This document shows, in pieces, positions 29,677-62,036 of a stretch of 64,000 nucleotides of DNA. The notes beneath the pieces were generated by a model, which saw only the letters and a list, made by a program, of their open reading frames with translations, did not search any database and was not told the DNA's origin. Both the position numbers and the translations under genes were made by a program. Source of the DNA: an uncultured bacterium (GTDB lineage: Bacteria > Verrucomicrobiota > Kiritimatiellia > RFP12 > UBA1067); contig CACXRO010000004.1 in NCBI GenBank assembly GCA_902770045.1, forward strand, positions 7,323 to 71,322. The letters run 5' to 3'. Within the stretch, counting starts at the first letter, position 1. The number at the start of each line of letters is the position of its first letter.

Positions 29677-29690
29677 GCCATTTCTGCATT

Positions 29691-29728
29691 GCGCGGGGAC
29701 AGTTCCTTTGAACGGGACTGTCCTGCGC
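29691..29728 (+). terminator. Terminator-like stem-loop after the lipoprotein gene
   Basis: GCGCGGGGACAGT ... ACTGTCCTGCGC (about 11 bp, one bulge). No clear U-tract. Confidence 0.35.
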
Positions 29729-29731
29729 ATT

Positions 29732-29764
29732 GTTCAAAAGTTGAAAAGGTATATTTGAAAGGGG
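29732..29764. repeat. GTTGAAAG-type octamer repeats (internal island copy)
   Basis: gttcaaaagttgaaaaggtatatttgaaagggg. Same orientation as the right-flank copy. Confidence 0.6.
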
Positions 29765-29778
29765 ATAAGGTTCGATAG

Positions 29779-31575: not shown

Positions 31576-31736
31576 TGAGCAGCAGCTCCAGGGGTTCGCG
31601 CGCATTTGCGTCAACCCGTAGTTCTTCCTGTCGAAAAAGTACAATAGGCAAAAAGGGACAGACCCACCTATATATGTTTTACTGTATATGCTTGACGGCG
31701 GGGAGGCGATGTAAAAGTTCCGCGGCAGATAAACAG

Positions 31737-31775: not shown

Positions 31776-31904
31776 CTACCGGCAGGATCAGGCCGGAACT
31801 GCACTCCTCTGGCTGTGCGCCGCGGCTCTACCCGCGCTCCATCCGCAACGACGAGAATTCCGCCGCGTACCTGGTGACGCTGGAGCGCTGAGACTGGGCC
31901 TGCG

Positions 31905-34900
31905 TCAAGCCCGCGCCGCGTGCCACTCCTGCAGCGAGCGGGGCGGCACGGCTTTCGACGAGGCGGTTGCCGCCATGCCGCGCACCGCCTCGGCGAAGCC
32001 GGCGAGCGTCGTCGTGACCGGAACACCCGCGAGCGTCGCTGCCGTGCGTATCTTGACGCTGTCGTGCGCGGCGCTTTCGCCGTCCTCGCGCGTGTTGACG
32101 ATCCACTTCACCTTGCCGCGCCGGATGAGGTCGAGCGTGTTGGGGCTGCCGAGCGGAATCTTGTAGAGGGCGTTCGATTCGATGCCGGCTTTCCAGAGCG
32201 CCGTGGAAGTGCCGCGGGTCGCCCAGATCTCGTAGCCGAGCTTGTCCAGCGTCTTGGCGAGCTCAACGACCTCGGCCTTGTCTTCGTCGCGGATGCAGAG
32301 GACGATTCCGCCATGCCCCGGCAGCGGCAGCGGGCTCCCCGCCGCGATCTGGCTCTTGTAGTAGGCCGTCGCCGCGTCCGCGCCGAACGCCATCACCTCG
32401 CCGGTCGACTTCATCTCCGGCGTCAGCGTGATGTCCGCGCCCGGGAACTTCACGAACGGGAACACCGCCTCCTTGGCGCAGAAATATGGTTTGGTAGTTT
32501 GGTGGTTAGGTGGTTTGGTGGTTTGGTGGTTAGGTGGTTGGGTGGTTAGGTGGTTGGGTGGTTGGGTGTGTAGCCGCTCTCCGACCATGCACCTTGCGGC
32601 GGTGCCGGCGAGCGACCAGCCGACCGCCTTCGAGACAAATGGCACGGTGCGCGAGGCGCGCGGGTTCACTTCGATCATCCACACCTCGCCGTCCTTGACC
32701 GCCAGCTGGATGTTCATGAGCCCGCAGACGTTGAGCTTCTCCGCGAAAGTGCGCGCGATGCGCTCGACCTCGGCGATCGTCTTCGCCGAGAGCGACACCG
32801 GCGGCGTGACCGCGGCGGCGTCGCCGGAGTGGCATCCCGCAGCCTCGACGTGCTCGAGGATCGCGCCGACGACGCAGGTCTTGCCGTCCGCGACGCAGTC
32901 GACGTCGAGCTCGATTGCGTGGGTGAGGAACTTGTCGATGAGGATGGGGCGGCCTTCCGAGATCTTTACCGCCGCCTCGACGTATTCCCGGAGCCGGTCC
33001 TCGTGGTAGACGATCGCCATGCCGCGTCCGCCGAGGACGAAGCTCGGGCGCACGAGGATGGGATAGCCGATCTCCCCGGCGATCTTCAGGGCGTCCTCGA
33101 CGGAGTGGGCGATTCCGCTCGGCGGCTGCTTCACGCCCACCTCGTTGACGAGGGCGCGGAAGAAGTCGCGGTCCTCGGCGAGCGCGATGTCGTGGGGCGA
33201 CGTTCCGAGGACGTTCACGCCTGCCTCGGCGAGGCGCTCGGCGAGGTTGAGCGGGGTCTGGCCGCCGAACTGGACGATCGCGCCATCGCACCGCTCGCGC
33301 TCGTAGATCTCCATCACGTCCTCGAAGGTGAGCGGCTCGAAGTAGAGCCTGTCGGAGGTGTCGTAGTCGGTCGAGACGGTCTCGGGGTTGGAGTTGACCA
33401 TCACCACCTCGATGCCCATCTTGCGGAGCGCGAAAGCCGCGTGGCAGCAGCACCAGTCGAACTCGATTCCCTGGCCGATGCGGTTCGGCCCGCCGCCGAG
33501 GACCATGATTTTATGTTTCTGCCGCAAAGTACGCAAAGAGCGCAAAGGACGTTCTGTCTTTGCGTTCTCTGCGTTCTCTGCGGCTAACGAATAATATGAA
33601 TAATAATACGGCGTTTTGGCTTCGAATTCGCCGGCGCAGGTGTCGACTTCGCCGAACTCGGGGCGGATGCCAAGGGCAAGGCGATTCTTCCGCACCGTAA
33701 TCTCGTCGGTGCCGATCGCCGCGGCGATCTCCTTGTCGCTGAAGCCGAACGCCTTCGCCTGACGAAGGACTTCGGGCCTTAGCATATTTGTGTTTTTGCC
33801 GCAAAGATCGCAAAGGTCGCAAAGTGGTTCAGGGTGAGTGGAGTCTGAACTTGTCTTTGCGTTCTCTGCGTTCTTTGCGGCTAAAAAATGGCCACCAAGA
33901 TATTCCCTGAAAGCTTCGATTTCATCGAGCTCGCGCTTGAACCACGGGTCGAAGCCCGACGCGTCGTGTCCCGCGAGCGGCGCCTCCAGCGACCTGACCG
34001 CCTTCAGGTATGCCTGCTTGAAGGTGCGGCCGATGGCCATCGCCTCGCCGACGGACTTCATCTGGGTGCCGAGGCGCCTGTCGGCGCCCGGGAACTTCTC
34101 GAAGGTGAAGCGCGGCACTTTTACGACCACGTAGTCGAGCGCGGGCTCGAAGCAGGTCGGAGTCACCTGGGTTATGTCGTTCTTGAGCTCGTCGAGCGTG
34201 TAGCCGACGGCGAGGAGCGCGGCGATCTTGGCGATCGGGAAGCCAGTCGCCTTCGACGCGAGCGCGGACGAGCGCGAGACGCGCGGGTTCATCTCGATGA
34301 TGATGCGCCGGCCGGTCTTCGGGTTGACCGCCCACTGCACGTTGGAGCCGCCGGTCTCGATGCCAATCTTCTCGAGAACGCGGATGGAGTCGTCGCGCAT
34401 CGCCTGGTATTCGCGGTCGGTCAGCGTCTGGATCGGCGCGACGGTGATCGAGTCGCCGGTGTGGACGCCCATCGGATCCATGTTCTCGATGGAGCAGACG
34501 ATCACGGCGTTCCCCGCCTTGTCGCGCATCACCTCCATTTCGAATTCCTTCCAGCCGATGAGCGACTCCTCGATCAGCACCTCGTGGTTGAGCGACGCCT
34601 CCAGGCCGCGCGAGACGATCTCGCGGAACTCGCCCTCGTCGTGCGCGATGCCACCGCCGGTGCCGCCGAGGGTGAAGCCGGGGCGGATGATGAGCGGCCA
34701 CGAGCCGATCTCCGCCGCGATCCGCTGCGCCTCCTCCGGCGAATGGGCGCTCCCCGACTTCGGCATGTCGAGTCCGAGCTCCGACATGGCGGCCTTGAAG
34801 AGGTTGCGGTCCTCGGCGCGCGCGATGGCCTCGGCGTTCGCGCCGATCATCTCGACGCCGCATTCGGCGAGGACGCCGGACTTCGCCAGCCCCGTTGCCA

Positions 34901-35189
34901 CGTTGAGCGCGGTCTGTCCGCCAAGCGTCGGGAGCAGCGCGTCCGGGCGCTCCTTGCGGATGATCGCGGCGACGGAGTCGACGGTCAGCGGCTCGATGTA
35001 GGTCGCCTCGGCCATTTCCGGGTCGGTCATCACCGTCGCCGGATTGGAGTTCGCGAGGACGATTTCGAATCCCTCGCGCCGCAGCGCCTTCACCGCCTGG
35101 CAGCCCGAGTAGTCGAACTCGCAGCCCTGGCCGATGACGATCGGACCGGAGCCGATGATCAATATCTTTTTCAGGTCGGTGCGCTTCAT
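31905..35189 (-). CDS. carB: Carbamoyl-phosphate synthase large subunit (with three in-frame repeat insertions)
   Basis: [29 protein letters not shown].., second ATP-grasp half [22 protein letters not shown].., MGS-like C-terminus. ATGA overlap with the pyrG stop. Confidence 0.93.
32488..32568. repeat. GGTTAGGT/GGTTGGGT/GGTTTGGT octamer array (about 10 units) in frame in carB
   Basis: Translated on the minus strand as [28 protein letters not shown]. Confidence 0.9.
33519..33586. repeat. CGCAAAG nonamer hairpin element in frame in carB
   Basis: ctgccgcaaagtacgcaaagagcgcaaagg-acgttctg-tctttgcgttctctgcgttctctgcggc. Translated as [24 protein letters not shown], just before the conserved [13 protein letters not shown]. 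Confidence 0.9.
33796..33883. repeat. CGCAAAG nonamer hairpin element in frame in carB
   Basis: ttgccgcaaagatcgcaaaggtcgcaaag-(30 nt loop)-ctttgcgttctctgcgttctttgcggcta. Translated as [30 protein letters not shown]. Confidence 0.9.
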
Positions 35190-36922
35190 TTCCGCTTCCT
35201 GCCTTTCAGCGCCGCCGCGACGAGGCCGAGGAAGAGCGGGTGCGGGGCGGTGGGGCGGCTCTTGAACTCGGGGTGAAACTGGCCGGCGATGAAGTACGGG
35301 TGCGACGGCAGTTCGACGATCTCCACGAGCTTGCCGTCGGGCGAAAGGCCGCTTACCTTGAGCCCGGCCGCCTCGAGCCTTTCGCACGCCTCGCTGTCGT
35401 AGGCGAGCTCGTAGCGGTGGCGGTGTCGCTCGGAGATTGTCAATGTTCCATTTTTAGCCACAAAGGACACAGAGTTCACAGAGTCTTTGTGCTCTTTGTG
35501 TTCTTTGTGGCTATAGAGTTTATCGGCGAGAGTGCCGCGCTTGATGACGCAGGGATAGGCGCCGAGGCGCATGGTGCCGCCTTTCTGGGTGATGCCGCGC
35601 TGTTCCTCCATGAGGTCGATGACCGGATGCGTTGTGTGCTCGTCGAACTCCGTCGAGTTGGCGTCCGCCCATCCGAGCACATCGCGGGCGTATTCGATCA
35701 CCGTGCACTGCATGCCAAGGCAGATGCCAAGGAAGGGGATCTTGTGCTCGCGCGCGTACTTGATCGCCGCGATCTTGCCCTCGACGCCTCTTGATCCAAA
35801 GCCCCCCGGAACCAGAATGCCGTCGATGTTTGATAATTTTTTGCCACAAAGATCACAAAGGCCACAAAGTCTTTTCCCGCTCTTTGCGTTCTCTGTGTTC
35901 TTTGTGGCTAAAAGTTCTTCCGATTCGATCGGCACGACCACCACCTTGCAGTCGTTCGCCATGCCGGCGTGCTGCAGCGCCTCGTGGATCGACTTGTAGG
36001 CGTCGCGGATGGCGATGTACTTGCCGACGAGCGCGATGCGGCAGTGCTTCTTCGGCTGCGTCGCCTTCCTGACGAGCGTGTCCCAGACGGTGTGCTTCAC
36101 CGGCCAGATGTCGAGGTGGAGCTGCCGCAGGACCTGCTCGTCGAGTCCCTGCTTCCTGAGCTCCCGCGGCACCGCATAGACCGAGTCGGTCACGTCCTGC
36201 TCCTCGATCACGCACTCGGGCCTCACGTTGCAGAAGAGGGCCAGCTTTTGCTTGTGCTCCTCGGGAATCGGCATCTCCGTGCGGCAGACGAGGATGTCGG
36301 GGATGATGCCGATGTTGCGGAGCTGTCCCACCGAGTGCTGCGACGGCTTGGTCTTGAGCTCGCCCGCGGCCTTCAGGTAGGGGACGAGCGTCAGGTGCAC
36401 GAAGCAGGTGTTCTCGATGCCCTCCTCGAAGCGGAACTGCCGCGCCGCCTCGAGGAAGGGGAGCGACTCGATGTCGCCGGAGACGCCTCCGATCTCGCAG
36501 AGGACGATGTCGCAGTCGTGGTTGCCGGCGTCGTGGATCGCCGCCTTGATCTCGTCGGTGATGTGCGGGACGACCTGCACCGTACCGCCGAGGTACCCGC
36601 CCGCGCGCTCGCGCGCGAGGACGGCGGAGTAGATGCGGCCCGAGGTGTAGTTGGACGCCTTGGTGCAGGTGACGCCGGCGAAGCGCTCGTAGTGGCCGAG
36701 GTCGAGGTCGGTCTCCGCGCCGTCGTCGGTCACGAACACCTCGCCGTGCTGGTAGGGCGACATAGTGCCGGGGTCGACGTTGAGGTACGGGTCGAGCTTC
36801 TGCATGAAGACCTTGTAGCCGCGCGACTTGAGAAGCAGCGCGAGCGAAGCCGAGGTGATTCCCTTGCCGAGCGAGCTCACGACGCCGCCTGTGATGAACA
36901 CGTATTTGACTTGCTTTTTCAT
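35186..36922 (-). CDS. pyrG: CTP synthase (with two in-frame repeat insertions)
   Basis: [55 protein letters not shown]. Confidence 0.93.
35455..35513. repeat. CACAAAG nonamer hairpin element in frame in pyrG
   Basis: tagccacaaaggacacagagttcacagag-tctttgtgctctttgtgttctttgtggcta. Translated as [22 protein letters not shown]. Confidence 0.9.
35841..35910. repeat. CACAAAG/CGCAAAG nonamer hairpin element in frame in pyrG
   Basis: ttgccacaaagatcacaaaggccacaaag-tcttttcccg-ctctttgcgttctctgtgttctttgtggcta. Translated as [24 protein letters not shown]. Confidence 0.9.
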
Positions 36923-36933
36923 GGCTGTTGTTT

Positions 36934-36991
36934 TTGCCGCAGAGAACGCAAAGAGCGCAAAGGCTTTGCGTACTATGCGTTCTTTGCGGCT
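36934..36991. repeat. CGCAAAG nonamer hairpin spanning the carA stop and the carA-pyrG spacer
   Basis: ttgccgcagagaacgcaaagagcgcaaagg-ctttgcgtactatgcgttctttgcggc. The last carA residues AAKNA and its TAG stop are encoded by the right arm. Confidence 0.9.
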
Positions 36992-38169
36992 TTTATCATC
37001 GATTTGAATTGGTTAAATAGGTAGTTGGAGTCGTGCGGACCGGGGCAGGCCTCGGGATGGTACTGCACCGAGAACGCCGGGAGCGTCTTGTGCCGGATAC
37101 CCTCGATCGACCCGTCGTTGAGGTTGACGTGCGTGACTTCGAGGCAGTCCGGCACCGACTCCGGGATGACGGCGAAGTTGTGGTTCTGGCTGGTGATCTC
37201 CACCTTGCCGGTCTCAAGGTTCTTCACCGGATGGTTGCAGCCGTGGTGGCCGAACTTGAGCCTGCCGGTCTTCGCGCCGCAGGCAAGCGAGAGCAGCTGA
37301 TGCCCCAGGCAGATGCCCATGATGGGGATTGGTTTGGTGGTTAGGTGGTTAGGTGGTTGGGTGGTGCTGGTATGCGCACTCAAACGCTCAAACCCCAACA
37401 ACTTTCTGATGTTCTCGATGGCATAAGTCACTGCCGCCGGGTCGGCGGGGCCATTCGAGAGGAACACGCCGTCGGGGGAGAGAGCAAGCACCTCCTCGGC
37501 CGGCGTCTTCGCCGGCACGACCGTGACCTTCGCCCACGACGCCAGCGACCTGAGGATGTTCAGCTTGACGCCGAAGTCATAGCAGATGATCCATGGTTCG
37601 TGGTTCGTGGCTCGTGGCTCGGGTGTGAAATCATACGCCTTTTCGCAAGTCACTTTTGCCGCGTAGTCTTGGCCGTCGAGACCGGGCCATTCGTTGGACT
37701 TGGCCATCGCAGCTTCCTCGCTTAGAGACGCGTCAACGCAGAGATACGCCTTCCGGTTGCCGTGCTCGCGGATGTGCAGCGTCAGCGCACGGGTGTCCAC
37801 GCCGTAGATGCCCGGGACGCCGTTCTCGGCGAGATATTCGCCGAGGCTCTTTTCGCTGCGCCAGTTGCTGGGTTCAGTGAGGTCGCCGATGACGAGCCCC
37901 GACAGAAAAAGTCCCCGGGACTCGACGTCCTCGGGGTTGATGCCGTAGTTGCCGACTTCGGCGGTGGTGAGGGTGACGAACTGTCCGGCGTAGGAGGGGT
38001 CGGTCAGGATCTCCTGGTAGCCGCTCATCCCGGTGTTGAAGACGACCTCGCCGAGCGCATCTTTCTTCGCGCCGAACGCGACGCCGTGGAATACGGCGCC
38101 ATCGTCCAGCGCAAGGAACGCCTTCCGCTCCCGCTCGTTCTTCCATTTCTCCTCGTAGCTCATAGCCAT
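36973..38169 (-). CDS. carA: Carbamoyl-phosphate synthase small (glutaminase) subunit
   Basis: GEVVFNTGMSGYQEILTDPSYAGQ..GICLGHQLL..HGCNHPV..SQNHNF..VQYHPE. Confidence 0.93.
   Translation of the reverse strand: MAMSYEEKWKNERERKAFLALDDGAVFHGVAFGAKKDALGEVVFNTGMSGYQEILTDPSYAGQFVTLTTAEVGNYGINPEDVESRGLFLSGLVIGDLTEPSNWRSEKSLGEYLAENGVPGIYGVDTRALTLHIREHGNRKAYLCVDASLSEEAAMAKSNEWPGLDGQDYAAKVTCEKAYDFTPEPRATNHEPWIICYDFGVKLNILRSLASWAKVTVVPAKTPAEEVLALSPDGVFLSNGPADPAAVTYAIENIRKLLGFERLSAHTSTTQPPNHLTTKPIPIMGICLGHQLLSLACGAKTGRLKFGHHGCNHPVKNLETGKVEITSQNHNFAVIPESVPDCLEVTHVNLNDGSIEGIRHKTLPAFSVQYHPEACPGPHDSNYLFNQFKSMIKAAKNA
37331..37365. repeat. GGTTAGGT octamer array in frame in carA
   Basis: ggtttggtggttaggtggttaggtggttgggtggt. 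Translated as [12 protein letters not shown], immediately before the conserved IMGICLGHQ. Confidence 0.9.
37595..37621. repeat. GGTTCGTG/GGCTCGTG octamer array in frame in carA
   Basis: ggttcgtggttcgtggctcgtggctcg. Translated as EPRATNHEP. Confidence 0.85.
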
Positions 38170-38182
38170 AGTTCGGTTTTAG

Positions 38183-38217
38183 CCTTTGTCTTTGCGGTCT
38201 ATGCGTTCTTTGCGGCT
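38183..38217. repeat. CGCAAAG-family half element in the purF-carA spacer
   Basis: cctttgtctttgcggtctatgcgttctttgcggct. Confidence 0.8.
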
Positions 38218-38224
38218 GACAACA

Positions 38225-40171
38225 CTAGTAAGACCTTTCATTTATTTTGTCAAGATAGTTCTTGATCGCCTGGTGCAGGACCTTGTAGCCTCCTGGCGTC
38301 GGGTAGTCGCCGGTGAAGTACCAGTCGCCGAATTCGTGGTTCGTGGTTCGTGGTTCGTGGTTCGTGGCTGGGCGGTTAGGTGGTTGCAGGCATTGGCGAA
38401 GGTTGTCGACGGTCTGGTAGACGACCTTGACTTCCGCCTTCATGCCGGGCGGCGTGAGGAGACGCGCGATTTCCGCGCAGTGCTCCTCTTCGGTGAAGCG
38501 GGCATAGAGTTCGGCGAGAGGGTTTTCTTTGACAGGATTTACAGGATTAACAGGATTGGGATTGGGGGGCTGGGGGGTGTCTCCAGATAATCCTGAAAAT
38601 CTTGTTAATCCTGTCAAAAGATTTTCGGCTTCCTTGCCGAGCAGGTTCATGAGCGCCTTGAAGGCGACGAGTTCGCCGAGGGTGGACATGTCGATGCCGT
38701 AGCAGTCGGGATAGCGGATCGGCGGCGCGGAGGAGGCGACGACGATCCGCTTCGGCCCCAGCCGGTCCAGCATCGGCAGGATGGCGTTCTTCATCGTGTT
38801 GCCGCGGACGATCGAGTCGTCCAGCACCACGAGCGTGTCCCGGCCGGGGCGCACCAGTCCGTAGGTGACGTCGTAGACGTGCTTGTAGAACTCGCGTCGC
38901 GCCGCGGCGTCGGCGATGAAGGTGCGGAACTTCGCGTCCTTCACCGCAATTTCCCCGAAGCGGGGAAATTGGTTAGGCGGTTGGGTGGTTAGGTGGTTAG
39001 GTGACTGCTGAGCTGAACTGTCCAACCATTTTTTGAATAATTCTTCCAGCAGCCCATGGAAGGCGATGCGGGCGGAGTTGGGGATGTAGGAGAAGAAGAT
39101 GTCTTCGATCGGCGCATCCGCCGCGGCGAGGATCTGCGGCACCAGCGCCGCGCCGAGCGCCTTGCGCTCGCGGTGGATGTCGGCGTCGTTGGCGCGGGAA
39201 AAGTAGATGCGCTCGAAGGTGCAGGGGCGGGGTGGTGGTTGGGTGGCTGTGGGAGGATTTTCAAACCGCACTTCGCCGTCAGGAGAAACGACGAGCGTTT
39301 GGCCGGGCGGGAGTTCCTTCACCGCCTCCGGCGGCACGTCGAAGGCGGCCTGGATCGCGGGGCGCTCGCTGGCTACTGCCACCACGTTGTCGTCGAGGTA
39401 GTAGAAGCCGGGGCGGATGCCGCACGGGTCGCGCGTCGCGAAGGCCCAGCCGTCGCCGGTCGTGCCGCATAGCGTCCAGGCGCCGTCGGCTTTGGCGAGC
39501 GCGGAGGAGAGTGCTCTGGCAATCGGAGTCTCACACGGAGGCACAGAGGCACGGAGCCTTCCGTCCTCTGAGTCTCTGTGGCTCTGCGTGAGTTCGTGGG
39601 CGATCAGTTCGCAGATGAGGTAGCCGTCGGACCGGCTGGTGGGGAAGGAGCCGCGGCGTTGGTAGTCGTCGAAGAGCTCGCGCGCGTTGGTGAGGTTGAA
39701 GTTGCCGGCGAGGAGGACAGTGTGGGCGAGTTCGCTCGATTCGTGGATGAACGGATGGCAGAACGCCACCTCGTTCTTTCCGAAGGTGGCGTAGCGGAGG
39801 TGGCCGAGGAATATCCTTTCTTGATTTTTGCCACAAAGATCACAAAGGCCACAAAGGCTATCTCCCTCATTTTTGTGTTCTATGTGTTCTTTGTGGCTAA
39901 ATCTTCTCCCGATGGCGGCGAGTATGTCCGCAAGCGGCGTCGCCGAAGCCGATTTTGCGATCCAGTACGGCGGTTCTCCCGGATTGGGGTTGTTGGAGAG
40001 GATCGCCGCGCCGGCGCCGTCCTGGCCGCGGTTGTGCTGCTTCTCCATGAGGAGCGAGAGCTTCGTTCCGCCATAATCGCCCGCGGCGACGGTGGTCCCG
40101 CGCAGGACCACCATCGCCACGGCGCATTCGTGCTTTAGTTCATCTGACATTTTGTCCGACTGCCATAGCAC
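38225..40171 (-). CDS. purF: Amidophosphoribosyltransferase (648 aa, expanded by at least 5 in-frame repeat insertions)
   Basis: N-terminal nucleophile region HECAVAMV..HNRGQDGAG..GHLRYATFG. PRT motif LVVLDDSIVRGNT. The start may be ATG 40150 instead. Confidence 0.88.
   Translation of the reverse strand: MLWQSDKMSDELKHECAVAMVVLRGTTVAAGDYGGTKLSLLMEKQHNRGQDGAGAAILSNNPNPGEPPYWIAKSASATPLADILAAIGRRFSHKEHIEHKNEGDSLCGLCDLCGKNQERIFLGHLRYATFGKNEVAFCHPFIHESSELAHTVLLAGNFNLTNARELFDDYQRRGSFPTSRSDGYLICELIAHELTQSHRDSEDGRLRASVPPCETPIARALSSALAKADGAWTLCGTTGDGWAFATRDPCGIRPGFYYLDDNVVAVASERPAIQAAFDVPPEAVKELPPGQTLVVSPDGEVRFENPPTATQPPPRPCTFERIYFSRANDADIHRERKALGAALVPQILAAADAPIEDIFFSYIPNSARIAFHGLLEELFKKWLDSSAQQSPNHLTTQPPNQFPRFGEIAVKDAKFRTFIADAAARREFYKHVYDVTYGLVRPGRDTLVVLDDSIVRGNTMKNAILPMLDRLGPKRIVVASSAPPIRYPDCYGIDMSTLGELVAFKALMNLLGKEAENLLTGLTRFSGLSGDTPQPPNPNPVNPVNPVKENPLAELYARFTEEEHCAEIARLLTPPGMKAEVKVVYQTVDNLRQCLQPPNRPATNHEPRTTNHEFGDWYFTGDYPTPGGYKVLHQAIKNYLDKINERSY
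38333..38386. repeat. GGTTCGTG octamer x5 plus GGTTAGGT units in frame near the purF C-terminus
   Basis: Translated as QPPNRPATNHEPRTTNHE. Confidence 0.9.
38528..38618. repeat. AATCCTGTT nonamer hairpin element in frame in purF
   Basis: tttgacaggatttacaggattaacaggatt-(loop)-aatcctgaaaatcttgttaatcctgtcaaa. Translated as LTGLTRFSGLSGDTPQPPNPNPVNPVNPVKE. Confidence 0.9.
38971..39003. repeat. GGTTAGGT octamer array in frame in purF
   Basis: ggttaggcggttgggtggttaggtggttaggtg. Translated as [12 protein letters not shown]. Confidence 0.9.
39533..39590. repeat. CAGAGGC-family hairpin element in frame in purF
   Basis: cacacggaggcacagaggcacggag-ccttc-cgtcctctgagtctctgtggctctgcgtg. Translated as TQSHRDSEDGRLRASVPPCE. 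Confidence 0.85.
39828..39899. repeat. CACAAAG nonamer hairpin element in frame in purF
   Basis: ttgccacaaagatcacaaaggccacaaagg-(loop)-tttgtgttctatgtgttctttgtggcta. Translated as [25 protein letters not shown]. Confidence 0.9.
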
Positions 40172-40210
40172 TAAACCACCAAACTACCTAACAACCTAAC
40201 CACCTAACCA
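40172..40210. repeat. CCTAACC/CCAAACC octamer tract in the glnN-purF spacer
   Basis: ctaaaccaccaaactacctaacaacctaaccacctaacc. Opposite orientation, relative to transcription, compared with the intragenic copies. Confidence 0.8.
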
Positions 40211-42167: not shown

Positions 42168-42223
42168 GTTTTCCTTTCGGTGCCGCCGCGTCACCATGAC
42201 GTGGCGAGCGAACGTGTTTTCAT

Positions 42224-42241
42224 TAGCACGATCCGTGCCAA
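42224..42241 (-). promoter_or_regulatory. Sigma54-type promoter for glnN: TGGCAC-ggatc-GTGCTAA
   Basis: The reverse complement of 42224-42241 reads tTGGCACGGATCGTGCTAA. The GG/GC spacing equals the consensus TGGCAC-N5-TTGC. About 45 nt upstream of ATG 42167. Confidence 0.6.
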
Positions 42242-42461
42242 AGCCGAAATGCCGCGGCGCGCGGCCGGATTCTTACGCGCAGCGTCGGATTCTCGGCGAA
42301 GCGATTACTGAAATCGTAACCGGCACCGGATACAATGGCAAGTCCTGATTGGACTTCCCGGACGGCCGTCAACGCCGCCGTTTATTACATGATTGATACT
42401 TTGCGGATGGGCGAATTACATGGGCTGTAAGAAATTCGGTTTTGCGCGGGGTTGTCAGCCC

Positions 42462-42480
42462 ATGGCACGGGTTGTGCTAA
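42462..42480 (+). promoter_or_regulatory. Sigma54-type promoter for gltDB: TGGCAC-gggtt-GTGCTAA
   Basis: aTGGCACGGGTTGTGCTAA at 42462-42480, nearly identical to the glnN copy. The ATG at 42493 is about 15 nt after the -12 GC, so the leader is very short. Confidence 0.6.
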
Positions 42481-42492
42481 GTTGCACCCAAT

Positions 42493-43851
42493 ATGCAACG
42501 GATACACGACATCTACCGCCCGGCGGAGGAGCGCAAGACTGACTGGCGCGAAGTCGAGCGCTCGCTTTCGGACGAAGAGCTGAAGGAGCAGACTTCGCGC
42601 TGCATGAACTGCGGCCAGCCGTTCTGCCACGCCTACGGCTGCCCGCTCGGAAACCTTGTGCCGGACCAGAACCGCGCCGTGGCGCAGGGGGACTGGAAGC
42701 GGGCATACGACCTTTTGACGGTGAACTCGGACTTCCCCGAGTTCACTTCGCGCATCTGCCCCGCGCTCTGCGAGGCGAGCTGCGTCCACGGCCTTGACGA
42801 GGAGGCGGTCATGATCCGCCAGTCGGAAAAGCGCATCATCGAGACCGCGTTTGAGCGCGGCTGGGTGGTGCCGCGGCCGCCGGAAAGGGAAAACGGCAAG
42901 TCCGCCGCGGTGATTGGCGCGGGGCCGGCGGGGCTTTCCGCCGCGGTTACGCTCCGGCGCCGGGGCTGGGCCGTCACGGTCTACGAGCGCCGCGCCCAGA
43001 TCGGCGGGCTGCTCCGCTACGGCATTCCCTGCTTCAAGCTCGACAAGGCGCTCATCGACCGCCGCCGCAAGATCCTGGAGTCGGAGGGGATAAAGTTCGT
43101 GACGGACTGCGAGGTCGGCCGGGACGTCTCCGCCGAATGGCTGGAGAAGGAACACGACGCGGTCGTCGTCGCCATCGGCACGCCCGCCGCGCGCGACCTG
43201 AAGATCCCCGGGCGCGAGCTTGAGGGGATCCACCTCGCGCTCGAGCTACTTGAAGGGCAGAACCGCTTCCTCACCGGCGAGCTGCCGGAGCCGCCGATCA
43301 GCGCCAAGGGCAGGGACGTGCTCGTCATCGGCGGCGGCGACACCGGCTCGGACTGCGTCGGCACCGCGATCCGCCACGGCGCGAAGTCGGTGACGCAGAT
43401 CGAGATCATGCCCAAGCCGCCGGAGGAGCGCGACGCCTCGACGCCGTGGCCGCTCTGGCCCTACATGCTGCGCACGAGCTCCAGCCACAAGGAGGGCTGC
43501 ATCCGCCGCTGGAACCTCAATTCGCTCCGGTTCGTCGGCGACGGGCGCGTCGCGGGCGTGGAGGTGGAGACGGTCAAGTGGGAGTTCTCGCCCGAGGGCC
43601 GTCCGGCGAAGTTCGCCGCGGTGCCGGGGACTAAGGAGACGATCAAGGCCGACCTCGTGCTGCTCGCCATGGGCTTCACCGGCGTCCCCGCCGACCTGCC
43701 GCTCGTCGCGCAGCTCGGGCTCAAGGAGACGCCGCGCACCGCGCTCCTGCCCGACCCGGCGCGGAACATCTTCTGCGTCGGCGACTGCGCCTCGGGCGCG
43801 TCGCTCGTCGTCCGCGCCCTCGCCAGCGGGAAGGCGCTGCCACTTGACTGA
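42493..43851 (+). CDS. gltD: Glutamate synthase small (NAD(P)H) subunit
   Basis: RCMNCGQPFCH..CPLGNLVP..ICPALCEASC..AVIGAGPAGLSAA..VIGGGDTGSDC. Confidence 0.9.
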   Translation: MQRIHDIYRPAEERKTDWREVERSLSDEELKEQTSRCMNCGQPFCHAYGCPLGNLVPDQNRAVAQGDWKRAYDLLTVNSDFPEFTSRICPALCEASCVHGLDEEAVMIRQSEKRIIETAFERGWVVPRPPERENGKSAAVIGAGPAGLSAAVTLRRRGWAVTVYERRAQIGGLLRYGIPCFKLDKALIDRRRKILESEGIKFVTDCEVGRDVSAEWLEKEHDAVVVAIGTPAARDLKIPGRELEGIHLALELLEGQNRFLTGELPEPPISAKGRDVLVIGGGDTGSDCVGTAIRHGAKSVTQIEIMPKPPEERDASTPWPLWPYMLRTSSSHKEGCIRRWNLNSLRFVGDGRVAGVEVETVKWEFSPEGRPAKFAAVPGTKETIKADLVLLAMGFTGVPADLPLVAQLGLKETPRTALLPDPARNIFCVGDCASGASLVVRALASGKALPLD

Positions 43852-43863
43852 AAGAACCAGACC

Positions 43864-46800
43864 ATGAACGATCAAAGCAGAAAAGACCGACAGCCGGGGC
43901 TCTACCGGCGAGAATTCGAGCACGACGCGTGCGGCGTCGGCATGGTCGCGAACCTCTCCGGCGAGGCGAGCCACGACATCGTCGAGAAGGGCATGACCAT
44001 CCTGAAGCGGCTCATGCACCGCGGCGCCACCGGCAACGACCCGGATACCGGCGACGGCGCGGGACTGCTGATGAAGATCCCGTATGGGTTTTTCAAAAAA
44101 GTGCTTAAGTTACCCAACCACCTAACCACCCAACCACCTAACCACCAAACCGAATTCGGAATTGCGATGATTTTCGGCGGCGAGGGCGAGGAGGCGGCGA
44201 TCGAGGGCGTGGTCAAGTCCGAGGGATGCAAGGTCCTCGGCTGGCGCGACGTGCCGACCAACCCCGACGCCATCGGACGCGACGCCCGCGCCGTTATGCC
44301 GCGGATTAGGCAGCTGTTCATAGCCGCTGGATCGGCAAGCTCTCAGAATCCTGTTAATCCTGTTAATCCTGTCAAAGAAGATTTCGAGCGCAGGCTCTAC
44401 ATCGTCCGCCGTCAGATCGAGAAGGCGACGAAGAAGACGTACGTCTGCTCCTGCTCGGCGCGGACGATTGTCTACAAGGGGCTGCTGCTTGCGACCCAGA
44501 TCGAGAGGTTCTACCCCGACCTCTCGGACCCGGACTTCGTCACGCCGTTCGCGATCGTCCACCAGCGGTACTCCACGAACACCTTCCCTTCCTGGGAGCT
44601 CGCCCATCCGTTTCGCGCCATCGCGCACAACGGCGAGATCAACGCGCTCAAGGGCAACCTCAACGCGCTTGCCGCGCGCGAGCCGTCGCTCGCCTCGCCG
44701 CTCTTCGGCGACGAGCTGAAGAAGCTGCTGCCGGTCGTCCACGCGGGGCAGTCCGACTCCGCATCGCTCGACAACATGTTCGAGCTGCTGGTCGCGGCCG
44801 GGCGCGACGCCCCTCACGCGATGATGATGCTCGTTCCCCAGGCCTGGGGCGCGAAGTACCACATGGGCCACGACGTGCGCGCCTTCTACGAGTACCACTC
44901 CGCGCTGATGGAGCCGTGGGACGGCCCCGCGGCGCTGGCGTTCACCGACGGCAAGGGCCTCGGCGCGACCCTCGACCGCAACGGACTCCGTCCCGCGCGC
45001 TGGACGCTCACCAAGGACGGGCTCTTCGTCCTCGCCTCCGAGACCGGCGTCCTCGACATCCCGGCGGATGCGGTAGCCCGCCGCGGCAGGGTGAAGCCGG
45101 GGGCGATGCTCTGGCTGGACCTCGAGAGCCACCGGCTCATGGAGGACGCGGAGGTCAAGACGTTCTACGCCCGCCGCCGTCCCTACCGTCGCTGGGTGGA
45201 CGAGAACCACATCCCGGTCACCGGCCTCTTCGCGGAGATCGTGCCGTCGAAGGCGCCCGGCGGCGCCGGCGCGCTCGCCGCGCAGCAGCGGAGCTTCGGC
45301 TACACGCTGGAGGACGTCGAGCTCATCCTCAGGCCCATGGCCGAGACCGGGCACGAGCCGGTCGGCGCGATGGGCAACGACGCGGCGCTAGCGTGCCTGA
45401 GGCAGGGGCGCTTCCGCCTCTTCGACTGCTTCCACCAGCTCTTCGCGCAGGTCACGAACCCGCCGATCGACCCGATCCGCGAGGAGCTCGTGATGTCGAT
45501 CATGACCTACATCGGCAACCAGGGGAACATCCTTGACGAGACGCCGGAGCACGCGCGGCTCGTCAAGATGACGCGCCCGGTGCTGACCGACGACGAGATG
45601 CGGCGCATCCGGAACATCCCCGACTTCCCGGCGAAGACGCTGCCGCTGTTCTTCGGCGGCTCGCTCGAGGACGCGCTCAAACGGCTCGCCGCGGACGCGC
45701 TCGCGGCGGTGAAGGGCGGCGCGAAGATCATCATCTTGTCGGACCGAGAGGGTTTAGCCACAAAGGACACAAAGGACACAAAGAACACAGAGGGGAAAAG
45801 AATTCCATCGCTCCTTGCAGTCGCGGCGGTCAACAAGTCGCTTGCGGACGCCGGCTTGAGGCCGTCCGTCGGCGTCGTCGTCGAGTCCGGCGAGGTGAGC
45901 GAGGTTCACCACTTCGCCGTCCTGCTCGGCTTCGGCGCGACGGCGGTCAACCCCTGGCTCGCGCTGGAGACCGTCTCTGAGATCGGCCGGGCGGGGCTTC
46001 CCCGCTCCGCCGTCGAGACGACCGCGCTCCACGCGGTGCGTCCGGAGGCCGCCCCCTACCTGGCCACCTCCAACTACGTCACGGCGGTATGCAAGGGGCT
46101 GATGAAGATCATGTCGAAGATGGGCATCTCGACGCTCAGGTCCTACCGCTCGGCGAAGATCTTCGAGGCCGTCGGGCTCGGTCCAAAGCTCATGGCGGAG
46201 TACTTCGAGGGCGTCGTCTCGCCAGTCGGCGGTCTGGAGCTGGAGGATCTCGAGAGACTCGTGGCTCGTGGCTCGTGGTTCGTGTCGGAGAATCACGAGA
46301 CACGAATCGCGAACCACGAATCACGAAACACGACTCTTTCGCCCGGCGGCGAGTACCGCGCGCGCAAGGGCGGCGAGGAGCACCTCTGGACGCCGCAGCG
46401 GCTCGTCGACTTCCGCGAGGCAGTGCGCAACGACGACTACGCCCGCTTCCACCGCTACACCGATGCCATCGACCAGAACAGCCATGTGACGCTCCGCTCG
46501 CTGCTGGAGTTCAATCCCAACCACCTAACCACCCAACCACCTAACCACCTAACCATTGAGGTCGAACCCGTCGATTCCATCGTGAAGCACTTCGTCGGCG
46601 GCGCGATGTCCCTGGGCTCGCTCTCGCCCGAGGCGCACGAGACGATTGCGCTCGCGCTGAACGGGCTCGGCACGATGTCCAACTCCGGCGAGGGCGGCGA
46701 GAACCCCGAGCGCTTCGGCACCGACAAGAACAGCGCGATCAAGCAGGTCGCGTCCGGCCGCTTCGGCGTGACGATCGAGTACCTCCGCAGCGCCAAGGAC

Positions 46801-48384
46801 CTGCAGATCAAGCTTGCCCAGGGCGCGAAGCCGGGCGAGGGCGGGCAGCTACCCGCGCACAAGGTGAACGAGTTCGTCGCCCGCCTCCGCCACGCGAAGC
46901 CGGGCACCCCGCTCATCTCGCCGCCGCCGCACCACGACATCTACTCCATCGAGGACCTCGCGCAGCTCGTCTACGACCTCAAGTGTGCCAACCCCGCCGC
47001 GCGCGTCTCGGTGAAGCTCGTCTCCGAGGCGGGGGTCGGCACGATCGCCGCTGGCGTCGCCAAGGCGCACGCCGACGTGGTGGTCATCTCCGGCTTCGAC
47101 GGCGGCACCGGCGCCGCTCCGCTCACCTCGGTGAAGCACACGGGTCTGCCGTGGGAGCCGGGGCTCGCCGAGGCCCACCAGACGCTGGTCAAGAACAACC
47201 TCCGGCACCGCGTGAAGCTGCAGGTCGACGGACAGCTCCGCACCGGACGCGACATCGTCATCGCCGCGATGCTCGGCGCGGACGAGTTCGCGTTCGGCAC
47301 CTCGATGCTCGTCTCGCTCGGCTGCATCCAGTGCCGCAACTGCAACCTCAACTGCTGCCCCGTCGGCATCGCGACCCAGAAGGAGGAGCTGCGCTGCAAG
47401 TTCGCCGGCAAGCCAGAGCACCTGCAGCGCTACTTCCGATTCCTCGCCGAGGAGGTGCGCGAGGTGCTCGCCTCGCTCGGACTCAAGTCGCTCGCCGAGG
47501 CGCGCGGCCGCACCGACTTGCTGAAGGCGGTCGACGGCTCGCGGTTTGATTTTGGTGATGTGCTCGCGCAGAGACGCGGAGAAGCGGAGAAGCGCAAGGA
47601 CTTTGAGCCTTATGCGTTCTCCGAGGCCGAGAACTACGACTTCCGCGAGCTGATTCCGGCCGTGGAGAAGGGCGAGACCGAGCTGAAGCGCGCAATCGCC
47701 AACCGCGACCGATCCGTCGGCGCGGCGCTCTCCGGCTGGCTCGTCGCCCACCATCCAACCACCCAACCACCTAACCACCTAACCATAAACTTCACCGGCG
47801 TTGCCGGGCAGTCCTTCGGCGCGTTTCTCGCCAAGGGAGTGGAGTTCAACCTCGTGGGCGAGGCGAACGACTACGTCGGCAAGTCGCTCTCCGGCGGCGT
47901 GATTACCATCAAGGCGCAGGATAACAAGTCTTTCCGTCCCGAGGACAATGTCATCGCCGGCAACGTGATTGCCTACGGCGCCACGTCGGGCGCGATCTAC
48001 GTCAACGGGCAGGCGGGCGAGCGCTTCGGCATCCGCAACTCCGGCGCGACGCTCGTCGCCGAGGGCGTGGGCGACCACGGTTGCGAGTACATGACCGGCG
48101 GCACGGCGGTGGTGCTGGGTCCGGTCGGCGTCAACTTCGCCGCGGGCATGACCGGCGGCGTCGCCTACGTCTACGACGAGAAGGGCGACATGGACCTCAA
48201 CTGCAACCTCGACTCCGTCGACCTCTTCCCGGTGGAGGCGGGATCGGCGGACGAGAAGGAACTGCTCGCGCTCATCGACGAGCACATCTCGCGCACCGGC
48301 TCGCCCAAGGCCAAGCGACTCGTCGCAGGCTGGGCGGACGTACGTCCGTATTTCACGAAAGTCCTGCCGGCGCACCGTCGGTAG
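43864..48384 (+). CDS. gltB: Glutamate synthase large subunit (with at least 6 in-frame repeat insertions)
   Basis: EHDACGVGMVANL (Ntn Cys), HQRYSTNTFPSWELAHPF, QVTNPPIDPIREE, SGEGGE, GAKPGEGGQLP, SPPPHHDIYSIEDL, C-terminal GxxGxxG beta-helix. Confidence 0.93.
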   Translation: MNDQSRKDRQPGLYRREFEHDACGVGMVANLSGEASHDIVEKGMTILKRLMHRGATGNDPDTGDGAGLLMKIPYGFFKKVLKLPNHLTTQPPNHQTEFGIAMIFGGEGEEAAIEGVVKSEGCKVLGWRDVPTNPDAIGRDARAVMPRIRQLFIAAGSASSQNPVNPVNPVKEDFERRLYIVRRQIEKATKKTYVCSCSARTIVYKGLLLATQIERFYPDLSDPDFVTPFAIVHQRYSTNTFPSWELAHPFRAIAHNGEINALKGNLNALAAREPSLASPLFGDELKKLLPVVHAGQSDSASLDNMFELLVAAGRDAPHAMMMLVPQAWGAKYHMGHDVRAFYEYHSALMEPWDGPAALAFTDGKGLGATLDRNGLRPARWTLTKDGLFVLASETGVLDIPADAVARRGRVKPGAMLWLDLESHRLMEDAEVKTFYARRRPYRRWVDENHIPVTGLFAEIVPSKAPGGAGALAAQQRSFGYTLEDVELILRPMAETGHEPVGAMGNDAALACLRQGRFRLFDCFHQLFAQVTNPPIDPIREELVMSIMTYIGNQGNILDETPEHARLVKMTRPVLTDDEMRRIRNIPDFPAKTLPLFFGGSLEDALKRLAADALAAVKGGAKIIILSDREGLATKDTKDTKNTEGKRIPSLLAVAAVNKSLADAGLRPSVGVVVESGEVSEVHHFAVLLGFGATAVNPWLALETVSEIGRAGLPRSAVETTALHAVRPEAAPYLATSNYVTAVCKGLMKIMSKMGISTLRSYRSAKIFEAVGLGPKLMAEYFEGVVSPVGGLELEDLERLVARGSWFVSENHETRIANHESRNTTLSPGGEYRARKGGEEHLWTPQRLVDFREAVRNDDYARFHRYTDAIDQNSHVTLRSLLEFNPNHLTTQPPNHLTIEVEPVDSIVKHFVGGAMSLGSLSPEAHETIALALNGLGTMSNSGEGGENPERFGTDKNSAIKQVASGRFGVTIEYLRSAKDLQIKLAQGAKPGEGGQLPAHKVNEFVARLRHAKPGTPLISPPPHHDIYSIEDLAQLVYDLKCANPAARVSVKLVSEAGVGTIAAGVAKAHADVVVISGFDGGTGAAPLTSVKHTGLPWEPGLAEAHQTLVKNNLRHRVKLQVDGQLRTGRDIVIAAMLGADEFAFGTSMLVSLGCIQCRNCNLNCCPVGIATQKEELRCKFAGKPEHLQRYFRFLAEEVREVLASLGLKSLAEARGRTDLLKAVDGSRFDFGDVLAQRRGEAEKRKDFEPYAFSEAENYDFRELIPAVEKGETELKRAIANRDRSVGAALSGWLVAHHPTTQPPNHLTINFTGVAGQSFGAFLAKGVEFNLVGEANDYVGKSLSGGVITIKAQDNKSFRPEDNVIAGNVIAYGATSGAIYVNGQAGERFGIRNSGATLVAEGVGDHGCEYMTGGTAVVLGPVGVNFAAGMTGGVAYVYDEKGDMDLNCNLDSVDLFPVEAGSADEKELLALIDEHISRTGSPKAKRLVAGWADVRPYFTKVLPAHRR
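44113..44151. repeat. CCAACCAC/CTAACCAC octamer array in frame in gltB
   Basis: Translated as [14 protein letters not shown]. Confidence 0.9.
44345..44377. repeat. AATCCTGTT nonamer x3 (half element) in frame in gltB
   Basis: cagaatcctgttaatcctgttaatcctgtcaaa. Translated as QNPVNPVNPVK. Confidence 0.9.
45754..45792. repeat. CACAAAG nonamer x3 (half element) in frame in gltB
   Basis: ttagccacaaaggacacaaaggacacaaagaacacagag. Translated as LATKDTKDTKNTE. Confidence 0.9.
46258..46333. repeat. GGCTCGTG/GGTTCGTG hairpin element in frame in gltB
   Basis: ctcgtggctcgtggctcgtggttcgtg-tcggagaa-tcacgagacacgaatcgcgaaccacgaatcacgaaacacg. Translated as LVARGSWFVSENHETRIANHESRNT. Confidence 0.9.
46516..46555. 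repeat. CCAACCAC/CTAACCAC octamer array in frame in gltB
   Basis: Translated as [15 protein letters not shown]. Confidence 0.9.
47754..47785. repeat. CCAACCAC/CTAACCAC octamer array in frame in gltB
   Basis: Translated as [12 protein letters not shown]. Confidence 0.9.
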
Positions 48385-61016: not shown

Positions 61017-61045
61017 CCCGCAGAGACGCAGAGTCGCTGAGAGGA
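61017..61045. repeat. GCAGAGAC-family repeat, ending in the SD of the next gene
   Basis: cccgcagagacgcagagtcgctgagagga. The ATG at 61054 follows 8 nt later. Confidence 0.85.
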
Positions 61046-62004: not shown

Positions 62005-62036
62005 TCCCGCAGAGACGCAGAGGCGCAGAGAGGAGG
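62005..62036. repeat. GCAGAGAC-family repeat (left arm flanking the GxxExxY gene), supplies the SD
   Basis: tcccgcagagacgcagaggcgcagagaggagg, followed by tagatATG at 62042. Confidence 0.9.

Follow-up and report, generated by a model that had tools for sequence, protein, structure and literature searches.

The locus studied here raises the question of how five biosynthetic genes of an uncultured Kiritimatiellia bacterium (carB, pyrG, carA, purF, and gltB) came to carry, inside their reading frames, twenty short elements built of tandem 7-10-nt units, and of what these elements are. The genes lie in a 64-kb stretch of contig CACXRO010000004.1, hereafter called the window, which was analyzed in full together with related loci and with metagenome and viral contigs (designated by L numbers). 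The sequences used for comparison are mostly metagenome assemblies, and the nearest genomes are those of uncultured gut and rumen Kiritimatiellia. We consider it probable that the intragenic elements are cargo-less mobile elements of foldback type, resembling MITEs (miniature transposable elements with inverted repeats), which are tolerated as translated loops and whose complete relatives carry a GxxExxY/PDDEXK_3 gene in their loop.

The cluster extends from 31.9 to 48.4 kb. Its minus strand encodes carB, pyrG, carA, purF, and a type III glnA, and its plus strand gltD, gltB, and guaA. An earlier note on this DNA had described at least 18 in-frame elements there. Tandem Repeats Finder and direct reading recover them at the same positions and give 20 intragenic copies (carB 3, pyrG 2, carA 2, purF 6, and gltB 7). 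Three further elements fill the carA-pyrG, purF-carA, and glnA-purF spacers, the right arm of the first one containing the stop codon of carA, as the earlier note had also seen. The elements measure 30-100 nt and their arms are made of about three tandem units of 7-10 nt; solo arms and arrays are also present. Several unrelated unit families indeed share one design. Type A corresponds to (CCWAACCA)n arrays without an inverted partner. Type B is a hairpin with arms of three 9-mers, CRCAAAGnn and nnCTTTGYG, and a layout TTTTTGCC-(RCAAAGnnC)x3-loop-(CTTTGYGnn)x3-GGCAAAAA. Type C is made of CCACGAR 7-mers, occurring as arrays and as one hairpin, type D of ACAGGATTW/AATCCTGTW 9-mer hairpins, and the fifth type is a hairpin of the 8-mer CRCRGAGG. 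The hairpin types, which possess inverted terminal arms as in a classical MITE, fold as single strands into three 7-bp helices with small internal loops (z = -5.5 to -10 relative to dinucleotide shuffles); A arrays gave no structure in the same folding test. No meaningful Rfam family was obtained for any element at gathering or permissive thresholds, and literature searches yielded no description of the architecture, in line with the failure of the earlier note to match it to a described element. A search of a representative protein library with the element peptides gave three matches. In this library, the 1558-residue protein P0121 has 23 distinct stretches that match the peptide of the D element (E 7e-26), and it may be a protein built largely from such repeats.

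A fixed criterion (Tandem Repeats Finder, period 7-9, at least 2.4 copies, unit GC of at most 0.63) was applied to the whole window. It retains 31 short-unit arrays, 21 in the five host genes (12.7 kb), 10 in intergenic DNA (7.3 kb), and none in the 37 other genes (44 kb), the distribution among coding sequences having a binomial p of 2e-14. Array-free genes include several for long multidomain enzymes, namely a 969-aa rhamnosidase, a GH28 protein, a GyrB/ParE-like protein, RNase II/R, and HisRS. The restriction to host genes is also seen in three related loci (L081, L083, and L001). The description of the hosts as glutamine-dependent enzymes, proposed in the earlier note, is no more than descriptive: GuaA, GlnA, and GltD, from the same cluster, are element-free, and purD of a related metagenome-assembled genome (L003) carries one in-frame copy (NNRIIEFSKSRME), so that glutamine use is not what designates a host gene. 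Intergenic arrays of other sequence are also found in the window, at 4521-4586 (CAGTAAT x3.4 then CCAGCAG x6.6), and an intergenic array CCTTTCAA x3.1 lies at 23596-23620.

Are the intragenic elements translated? All 20 copies keep the frame of their host; every host open reading frame (ORF) reads through them, and the recurrent peptides quoted in the earlier note are all present. Type A arrays are informative in this respect. In a pure CCTAACCA array, the 8-nt unit cycles through all three frames and produces TAA in every one of them. Within genes, the variable third base is T in none of the 10 units where NAA is in frame, as compared with 16 of the 22 other units (Fisher p = 2.5e-4), and the intergenic A copy at 40174-40210 has stops in all frames. 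Because TAA is avoided only where it would fall in frame, the A arrays, and with them the intragenic elements, are on sequence grounds best regarded as translated, this avoidance being the signature expected from ribosome read-through. It also argues against removal of the elements at the RNA level. Outside the elements, dN/dS values of 0.07-0.24, obtained with relatives at dS up to about 1, point to host genes under purifying selection. The eight A copies are all read in the C-rich sense, an orientation that could be explained by selection against the hydrophobic WLGGW reading of the opposite strand. Finally, alleles with different unit numbers are offset from one another by complete periods of 21 or 24 nt. 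Contingency-locus simple sequence repeats, where unit number switches a frame on and off, were therefore set aside as a model, every allele being in frame.

The glnA-purF-carA-pyrG-carB cluster is syntenic in the nearest genomes. The outgroup locus L005 (Lentisphaeraceae) has no insert in any of four genes, and inserts are likewise absent from purF of L003 and L004, from Escherichia coli CarA, and from Bacillus subtilis GltB. By this comparison, the inserts are lineage-specific. Insertion sites were placed by alignment to the E. coli and B. subtilis proteins, the AlphaFold model of CarA being unusable (pLDDT 44, shallow alignment). Between IQKFLE and TDIPVFGICLGHQ, before P[IM]MGICLGHQ, CarA site 2 adds 19 residues as compared with the E. 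coli protein (1cs0_B), and a CarB insert stands directly before an invariant motif. The location in variable linkers beside invariant motifs claimed by the earlier note is borne out. CarA site 1 falls in an inter-domain linker naturally long in E. coli and corresponds to no net insertion. Six gltB copies align with gaps of 5-10 residues in B. subtilis GltB. As to PurF, an excess of about 150 aa had been proposed. This figure is too high, since the protein (about 630 aa) is of the long Bacteroidota-like type and element-free relatives of the same clade have 547-581 aa, so that the elements add about 70-100 aa.

The same sites are used repeatedly. In the window, L001, and L002, inserts of differing families occupy identical positions of CarA (two sites), PyrG (two sites), and PurF (about five sites), and CarB has three insert positions common to the window and L001, again with differing families, L002 not covering carB. 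Among 121 CarA homologues at 76-99% identity, variation is confined to the two sites, with 47 distinct fillers at site 1 (10-47 residues) and 40 at site 2 (4-40 residues). Twenty of the 121 have nothing at site 2 (GKVPM, like GARVPLM in the outgroup). The presence/absence polymorphism that the earlier note suggested looking for is thus found, here and in the comparison with L081 and L083 described below. One D hairpin was found at CarA site 1, at site 2, or at both, and the B, C, and A families occur at either site. A D element of about 85 nt, loop included, is present in purF, CarA site 1, CarA site 2, and PyrG of different genomes; moreover, pyrG site 1 and purF site 1 hold B copies with identical left arms. 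This sharing of the same element between unlinked sites argues for mobility and for family identity.

Turnover can be followed between close strains. L081 and L083 encode proteins 94-97% identical to those of the window outside gaps, with glnA DNA 99.2% identical. Presence/absence differences concern carB hairpin 1, carA site 2, and the purF C-terminus (57 nt for 12 nt). One family is replaced by another at carB hairpin 2 (B to C), pyrG site 1, purF site 4, and two gltB sites, and unit number changes in the carB A array (3, 2, or 1 periods of 24 nt) and at carA site 1 (x1 or x4). Divergence is mosaic, being elevated for a few hundred nt around the replaced sites, and between the window (31852-45661) and L081, to all appearance strains of a single species, dS is 0.03 in glnA and 0.07-0.15 in carA, pyrG, purF, and carB. 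These values suggest frequent recombination in the element-bearing genes, and because of them much of the replacement looks like an exchange of old alleles by homologous recombination. Clean excision was considered for the empty CarA site 2 and rejected, since the empty allele is a distinct outgroup-like haplotype (ENIK..GKVPM), indistinguishable from the outcome of recombination. The A/T runs seen at element ends extend the palindrome and are not target duplications.

Third codon positions give another view of the copies at orthologous sites. In the carA D element, 27 of 28 are conserved between L347 and L001, vs. 184 of 305 in the rest of the gene (p = 3e-5). In purF, the figures are 59/59 in the elements and 460/512 elsewhere between the window and L081 (p = 0.003), and 15/18 and 248/440 between the window and L001 (p = 0.02). 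With such an excess, the copies are not decaying relics; nucleotide-level constraint, homogenization by gene conversion, or re-insertion may account for it.

The design is not restricted to Kiritimatiellia. Metagenome contigs were scanned for three 9-mers CRCARAGnn (L084-L203), and a viral contig set was examined as well (L227-L346). The arm pattern occurs, with the same architecture, in at least 120 metagenome contigs from soil, sediment, and water, with GC contents from 35 to 71%. Hairpins with CRCARAGnn arms are also common, and mostly intergenic, in viral or proviral contigs. In this wider family, termini are palindromic (TTAACC..GGTTAA, TTAGCC..GGCTAA, TCACC..GGTGA; CCCGC..GCGGG is also seen). 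The hairpins are often nested in or beside other triple-unit hairpins (CACGAAG, AATCCGAA, ACAGGAT), and L156 and L140 contain hairpins inside the loops of other hairpins. B-type copies lie outside long ORFs at 73 of the 80 loci inspected. The repeats also exist outside the host genes, as intergenic arrays in the window and as intergenic B-type copies in many unrelated metagenomes. The design is thus that of a widespread intergenic repeat, its translation within genes being a peculiarity of Kiritimatiellia.

A candidate partner enzyme is found in a low-GC island of the window, where a gene of 136 codons (62042-62449) is enclosed by inverted arms. Its product matches PF13366 (PDDEXK_3; E 1.7e-34, 119 bits vs. 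a cut-off of 22) and TIGR04256 (GxxExxY protein; 120 bits vs. a cut-off of 35). The AlphaFold model of the GxxExxY protein (pLDDT 92.8) has weak Foldseek matches in the PDB (E 5e-3, TM 0.45-0.49) with Cas4, LHK/lambda exonuclease, and the nuclease domain of AdnA. D70, E80, K82, Q94, and Y98 are invariant in 33-39 GxxExxY homologues, and the predicted catalytic residues are intact. We take the D..ExK plus QxxxY pattern to be that of the RecB/Cas4/lambda-exonuclease group. GxxExxY/PDDEXK_3 would accordingly be named a putative minimal PD-(D/E)XK nuclease, similar to RecB, Cas4, and lambda exonuclease. The only paper found to classify PDDEXK_3 gives its function as unknown (PMC3424549). No description of the present repeats was found in the literature on GxxExxY/PDDEXK_3, and searches of PADLOC, PHROGs, and PDB sequences with the nuclease gave no matches.

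Homologues of the nuclease gene came from three sources: the fetched loci (tblastn), viral contigs (pattern search), and contigs looked up after a protein search. The gene lies within inverted triple-unit arms at about 11 of 14 assessable loci, the window included, and seven were found by protein homology alone. Beyond the window, the enclosed loci are L196, L185, L204, L205, L206/L207, L213, L218, L221, L223, and L226, with arm complementarities of 96% over 27 nt in L221, 81% over 86 nt in L223, and 94% over 31 nt in L226. The nuclease locus of L130 runs to the contig edge. The arm unit varies with the protein lineage: CGCAGAG 8-mers are found in the closest relatives, CGCGAAG, CACAGAG, CACAAAG, or CGCAGAT in more distant lineages, and an unrelated 13-mer in L206. 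Of the 92 homologues having a C-terminal tail, 65 include a translated CTCTGCG arm (..LCASASLRE..). A related type of 8-mer arm is found in frame in two window genes, purF (39534-39572) and gltB (47567-47599), and also in purF of L001 and at CarA site 2 of several homologues. Cargo-less forms predominate, loops being of at most 200 nt in 67 of 81 arm pairs. Two scans of viral contigs for further nuclease loci returned the same four each time.

The neighborhood of the nuclease gene deserves a description of its own. The low-GC island (60000-64000) contains, in this order, a RhuM+Fic/DOC gene (61054-61995) strongly matching the PADLOC candidate defense family PDC-S23, the GxxExxY gene, a Macro-domain gene (62578-63192), and a PIN7 gene (63189-63833), with repeat arms between the genes. 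Two arms (61017-61044 and 62006-62033) terminate in AGAGAGGAG just 5' of an ATG and supply its ribosome-binding site. A gene for a sigma-54-dependent transcriptional activator (58819-61002) lies near the nitrogen-assimilation cluster, and its homologue adjoins the GxxExxY gene in L213 and L217.

How would such elements have reached their present distribution? According to the mobile-element interpretation, they would fill intergenic spacers and settle in a few permissive linkers or loops of purF-carA-pyrG-carB and gltB. Coding copies would persist only if in frame and stop-free, the others being removed by purifying selection, and the result would be low-complexity loops of 10-40 residues in enzymes that stay functional. 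An occupied site would remain a hot spot, where tandem units slip and change in number. Other families would probably arrive by inserting themselves within the resident hairpin or next to it, and would then be trimmed, as suggested by the nesting in L156, in L140, and in the loop of a carB copy, and alleles would then be swapped between strains by homologous recombination. The nuclease might work as a transposase-like enzyme. Alternatively, it might cut hairpins in the manner of a homing enzyme and so set off copying with intact copies as templates, which would account as well for the copies being unusually uniform. The restriction to five genes could be due to elements that spread locally in a single operon, are tolerated, and use old sites again. 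A more general proposal, which we put forward as plausible though short of an even chance, is that of a widespread, undescribed class of foldback elements having about three 7-13-nt units per arm. These units would co-vary with a resident GxxExxY nuclease that mobilizes or homogenizes the elements by hairpin cutting and gene conversion, and cargo-less copies would serve as exchangeable translated cassettes at fixed sites in the nucleotide- and glutamate-biosynthetic enzymes of gut Kiritimatiellia.

Several observations weigh against the mobile-element interpretation. Neither a clean empty/filled pair nor an insertion junction was found, filled and empty alleles differing in neighboring codons too. 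The 10 junctions inspected gave no target-site duplication; no conserved target motif and no transposition event were seen. A purely selfish model predicts neither the extreme restriction to five genes, which are as permissive as intergenic DNA next to empty neighbors, nor the synonymous conservation of elements at orthologous sites, which is higher than that of their host genes. The nuclease gene itself accompanies only CRCRRAG-type arms or the unrelated 13-mer, and not A, C, or D units, of which many intragenic copies are made. It adjoins the hairpin without being enclosed in L222, has wrongly oriented arms in L163, and is absent from all 120 viral loci having the arm pattern, cargo being rare. 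Arms also flank other genes, namely RhuM/Fic in the window and a LysM-domain gene in L003 (13902-16001), which stands between 8-mer arrays CATTCGAT x8.5 and inverted TCGAATGG x10.

Among the alternatives, the one that survives best, though we judge it unlikely, is that the elements are cis-acting signals of nitrogen- and nucleotide-biosynthesis genes, tuning transcription, mRNA decay, or translation, for instance through ribosome pausing at recurrent Asn, Gln, His, and Pro-Pro codons, the peptides being a by-product. Such a role would fit with the gene-restricted distribution, which recurs in four genomes, with the presence of an element in every spacer of the purF-carA-pyrG operon, with nucleotide conservation above that of host synonymous sites, and with the ribosome-binding site supplied by some arms. 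It is harder to reconcile with the interchangeability of unrelated families at one site and with the empty sites of close relatives. Moreover, A arrays are unstructured, no Rfam family matches, and these elements are often met between genes in unrelated metagenomes and around genes that look selfish. Arm pairing is not consistently better on the mRNA strand, as illustrated by sense A-C mismatches in pyrG site 2 and in purF site 4 of L081. A role of mRNA structure was rejected on this point, the sense-strand mismatches being A-C in some copies and G-T in others, without a consistent strand.

Somewhat less likely again, the inserts would be adaptive hypervariable surface loops, with diversifying selection acting on the peptides (escape from an inhibitor or toxin, tuning of assembly) and the repeats being the raw material. 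Confinement to specific enzymes, and the occurrence of at least 40 alleles per site at 76-99% identity in a CarA otherwise nearly invariant, are what one would expect from such loops. However, conservation is found at the nucleotide level, third positions included, and not at the peptide level; the peptides are mere open frames of DNA repeats, and identical elements exist in non-coding DNA.

According to the third alternative, the repeats arose where they now stand, from slipped replication or from templated repair at fragile sites, and would be mini- or microsatellites without any mobility. This accounts for unit numbers that vary between strains (carB 3/2/1, carA x1 to x4, purF site 3), and the tandem repeats of Borg elements are reported to add disordered segments to proteins likewise (PMC9879509). 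This reading is nevertheless largely refuted, and we deem it improbable, because composites identical down to loop and termini are scattered over many unlinked loci and over different species, neither 7 nor 8 nt as a unit length is divisible by three, and families are common to several genomes and to intergenic copies. Addition templated by a telomerase-like enzyme or a reverse transcriptase, an idea stemming from the TTAGG-like 8-mers, was also rejected: the hairpins have defined termini, and neither a transposase nor a reverse-transcriptase domain was found among the 34 window proteins scanned. Lastly, even if most comparison sequences are metagenome assemblies, an assembly or sequencing artefact is hardly conceivable with intact ORFs and the same alleles in many independent assemblies and samples, and neither is ancestral sequence, the segments being absent from outgroups and distant orthologues (L005, E. 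coli CarA, and B. subtilis GltB).

If the elements are mobile, do they belong to a known system? In what they do, their closest analogues are the Rickettsia palindromic elements (RPEs) already evoked in the earlier note, dispersed palindromic repeats that interrupt unrelated metabolic genes without shifting the frame and whose translation gives the protein an extra segment that its fold accommodates (PMC10969869). In-frame palindromic insertion and translation are found in both cases. In contrast, RPEs have about 100-150 bp, belong to obligate intracellular alphaproteobacteria, and lack tandem-unit arms and any known partner gene. The present elements, from a Kiritimatiellia host, have 30-100 nt, three-unit arms, many interchangeable families per site, and variable unit numbers; they crowd five genes at a very high density and have a nuclease as candidate partner. 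RPE families 1-10 are set apart here by length, arm design, and host rather than by consensus alignment. REP (repetitive extragenic palindromic) sequences and REPINs are short imperfect palindromes, often in inverted pairs able to form long hairpins, whose abundant non-autonomous copies coexist with a single-copy enzyme gene flanked by repeats (PMC3116915, PMC3733652). The likeness lies in many small copies being linked to one small repeat-flanked enzyme gene. REPs are nevertheless extragenic, 20-40 bp long, tagged with GTAG or CGTC, and associated with an IS200/IS605-like Y1 (HUH) RAYT transposase. Here, there is no such tag (termini are TTTTTGCC..GGCAAAAA, CCCGC..GCGGG, TTAGCC..GGCTAA, or TCACC..GGTGA), arms are made of tandem units, 21 of 31 arrays are intragenic, and the gene flanked by repeats is PDDEXK_3, no transposase domain having been found in the 34 window proteins scanned. 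No parent insertion sequence of the kind expected for a classical MITE was found, the only longer relative being the element bearing the PD-(D/E)XK gene.

Foldback transposons are kilobase-sized eukaryotic elements, most copies of which have no coding region. Long inverted arms of short tandem subrepeats are reported for such elements, among them Drosophila FB and Tetris (PMC4079207). The likeness with the present elements is purely architectural, with no relationship in sequence or enzyme. Dispersed heptamer arrays also exist as the short tandemly repeated repetitive (STRR) sequences of cyanobacteria. Beggiatoaceae TAACTGA repeats are dispersed tandem 7-nt arrays as well (PMC4679880). Both resemble the present elements in having 2-6 units of 7 nt in tandem and several families in each genome, but are described as intergenic direct repeats, devoid of terminus-bearing hairpins, not translated in core genes, and with no reported nuclease partner. 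Finally, homing-endonuclease genes of introns, inteins, and rRNA intervening sequences similarly place a small nuclease ORF in the loop of a structured element that is mostly ORF-less; here, the gene is nested at about 11 of 14 loci. The elements described here differ from these hosts in that there is no evidence of splicing or excision at the RNA or protein level, and stop avoidance argues for translation. Thus, whereas in-frame palindromic insertion is already known from Rickettsia, the tandem-unit architecture and the nuclease partner appear undescribed.

Table 1. Host genes, repeat elements, and associated genes of the window (positions numbered from its first letter).
Feature	Position	Strand	Remarks
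carB, host gene	31905..35189	-	true start MKRTDLKK at 35189; Pfam CPSase domains on ortholog
A array, 10 x CCWAACCA, in carB	32487..32568	-	24-nt periods: 3 in window, 2 in L081, 1 in L083
B hairpin in carB, directly before invariant motif	33521..33584	-	C array in its place in L083
B hairpin in carB, 29-nt loop with nested mini-stem	33793..33888	-	z -10.2; absent in L081 and L083
pyrG, host gene	35186..36922	-	
B hairpin, pyrG site 2	35455..35513	-	
B hairpin, pyrG site 1	35837..35912	-	other families here in L081/L083, L001, L002
B hairpin filling carA-pyrG spacer	36931..36994	.	right arm encodes last five carA codons and stop
carA, host gene	36973..38169	-	
A array, carA site 2, before PIMGICLGHQ	37330..37365	-	site empty in L081, L083, and 20/121 homologues
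C array (CCACGAR, EPRATNHEP), carA site 1, inter-domain linker	37594..37621	-	21-nt period x1 to x4 in relatives
B half element, right arm only, purF-carA spacer	38177..38216	.	
purF, host gene, long type	38225..40150	-	
C array x5 plus A remnant, purF C-terminus (QPPNRPATNHEPRTTNHE)	38333..38386	-	57 nt for 12 nt of L081
D hairpin in purF (TGLTRFSGLSGDTPQPPNPNPVNPVNPVK)	38531..38615	-	
A array, purF site 4	38970..39003	-	B-type hairpins here in L081, L083, L002
Degenerate A remnant, purF site 3	39226..39253	-	units: 2 in L081, 5.5 in L083
8-mer hairpin CACRGAGG x3 / CCTYCGTC in purF (DSEDGRLRASVPPCE)	39534..39572	-	related to nuclease-flanking 8-mer arms
B hairpin, purF site 1	39825..39901	-	left arm same as in pyrG site 1 copy
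A array, glnA-purF spacer	40174..40210	.	three consecutive CCTAAC units give TAA in three frames
gltB, host gene	43864..48384	+	
A array in gltB	44112..44151	+	
D right arm only in gltB (NPVNPVNPV)	44347..44373	+	+9 aa vs. B. subtilis GltB
B left arm only in gltB (LATKDTKDTKNTEG)	45753..45793	+	+10 aa vs. B. subtilis GltB
C hairpin in gltB (LVARGSWFVSENHETRIANHESRNT)	46258..46333	+	
A array in gltB	46519..46555	+	
Degenerate solo arm, CGCAGAGA type, in gltB (AQRRGEAEKRK)	47567..47599	+	
A array in gltB	47750..47785	+	
Intergenic C-type array (ACGAACC x3.7) upstream of gene at 56815	56771..56796	.	
Solo left arm (CGCAGAGA x3)	61017..61044	+	its end is the ribosome-binding site of the RhuM/Fic gene
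Left arm (CCCGCAGAGACGCAGAGGCGCAGAGAGG) of cargo-bearing hairpin	62006..62033	+	
GxxExxY/PDDEXK_3 nuclease-fold gene in loop	62042..62449	+	ORF continues to 62581 through right arm and next hairpin
Right arm (CTCTGCGCCTCTGCGTCTCTGCGGGG) of cargo-bearing hairpin	62450..62475	+	
Cargo-less hairpin	62489..62561	.	right arm identical to arm at 62450-62475

Some other features of the window were noticed. Its glnA (40211-42164, minus strand) has, relative to L081, a frameshifting deletion of 149 nt at 41711/41712, with a 4-nt microhomology at the junction; it is either a pseudogene or the product of an assembly error. The segment 42197-42493 lacks the SpoIIE phosphatase and SBP_bac_3 genes that are located between gltD and glnA in L081 (3292-5828) and L083. 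A second low-GC island (24000-31600) encodes a fusion of a zinc ribbon, an FGE-sulfatase domain, and a ribosomal L7/L12 C-terminal domain (24227-25804), a DnaJ-CXXCXGXG protein (27255-29234) with a 138-nt tandem repeat at 28500-28803, and a SpoVK/CbbX-like AAA ATPase having an N-terminal zinc ribbon (29779-31575), whose gene adjoins carB in L081 too.

If the interpretation favored here is true, the abundant GxxExxY/PDDEXK_3 family, of unknown function, would gain a role and a DNA partner, and a repeat architecture of soil, sediment, freshwater, and gut metagenomes would gain an explanation. The repeats also call for care in annotation, binning, and alignment, since they break assemblies and yield spurious ORFs and odd protein tails. 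On the protein side, the inserts provide a natural map of the tolerance of CarA, CarB, PyrG, PurF, and GltB to insertions of 10-40 residues. The insertion of palindromes in frame would extend from Rickettsia to a free-living gut lineage, with a density close to that of intergenic DNA and a cassette-like turnover, and would offer a testable case of selfish DNA making new peptide segments in essential proteins.

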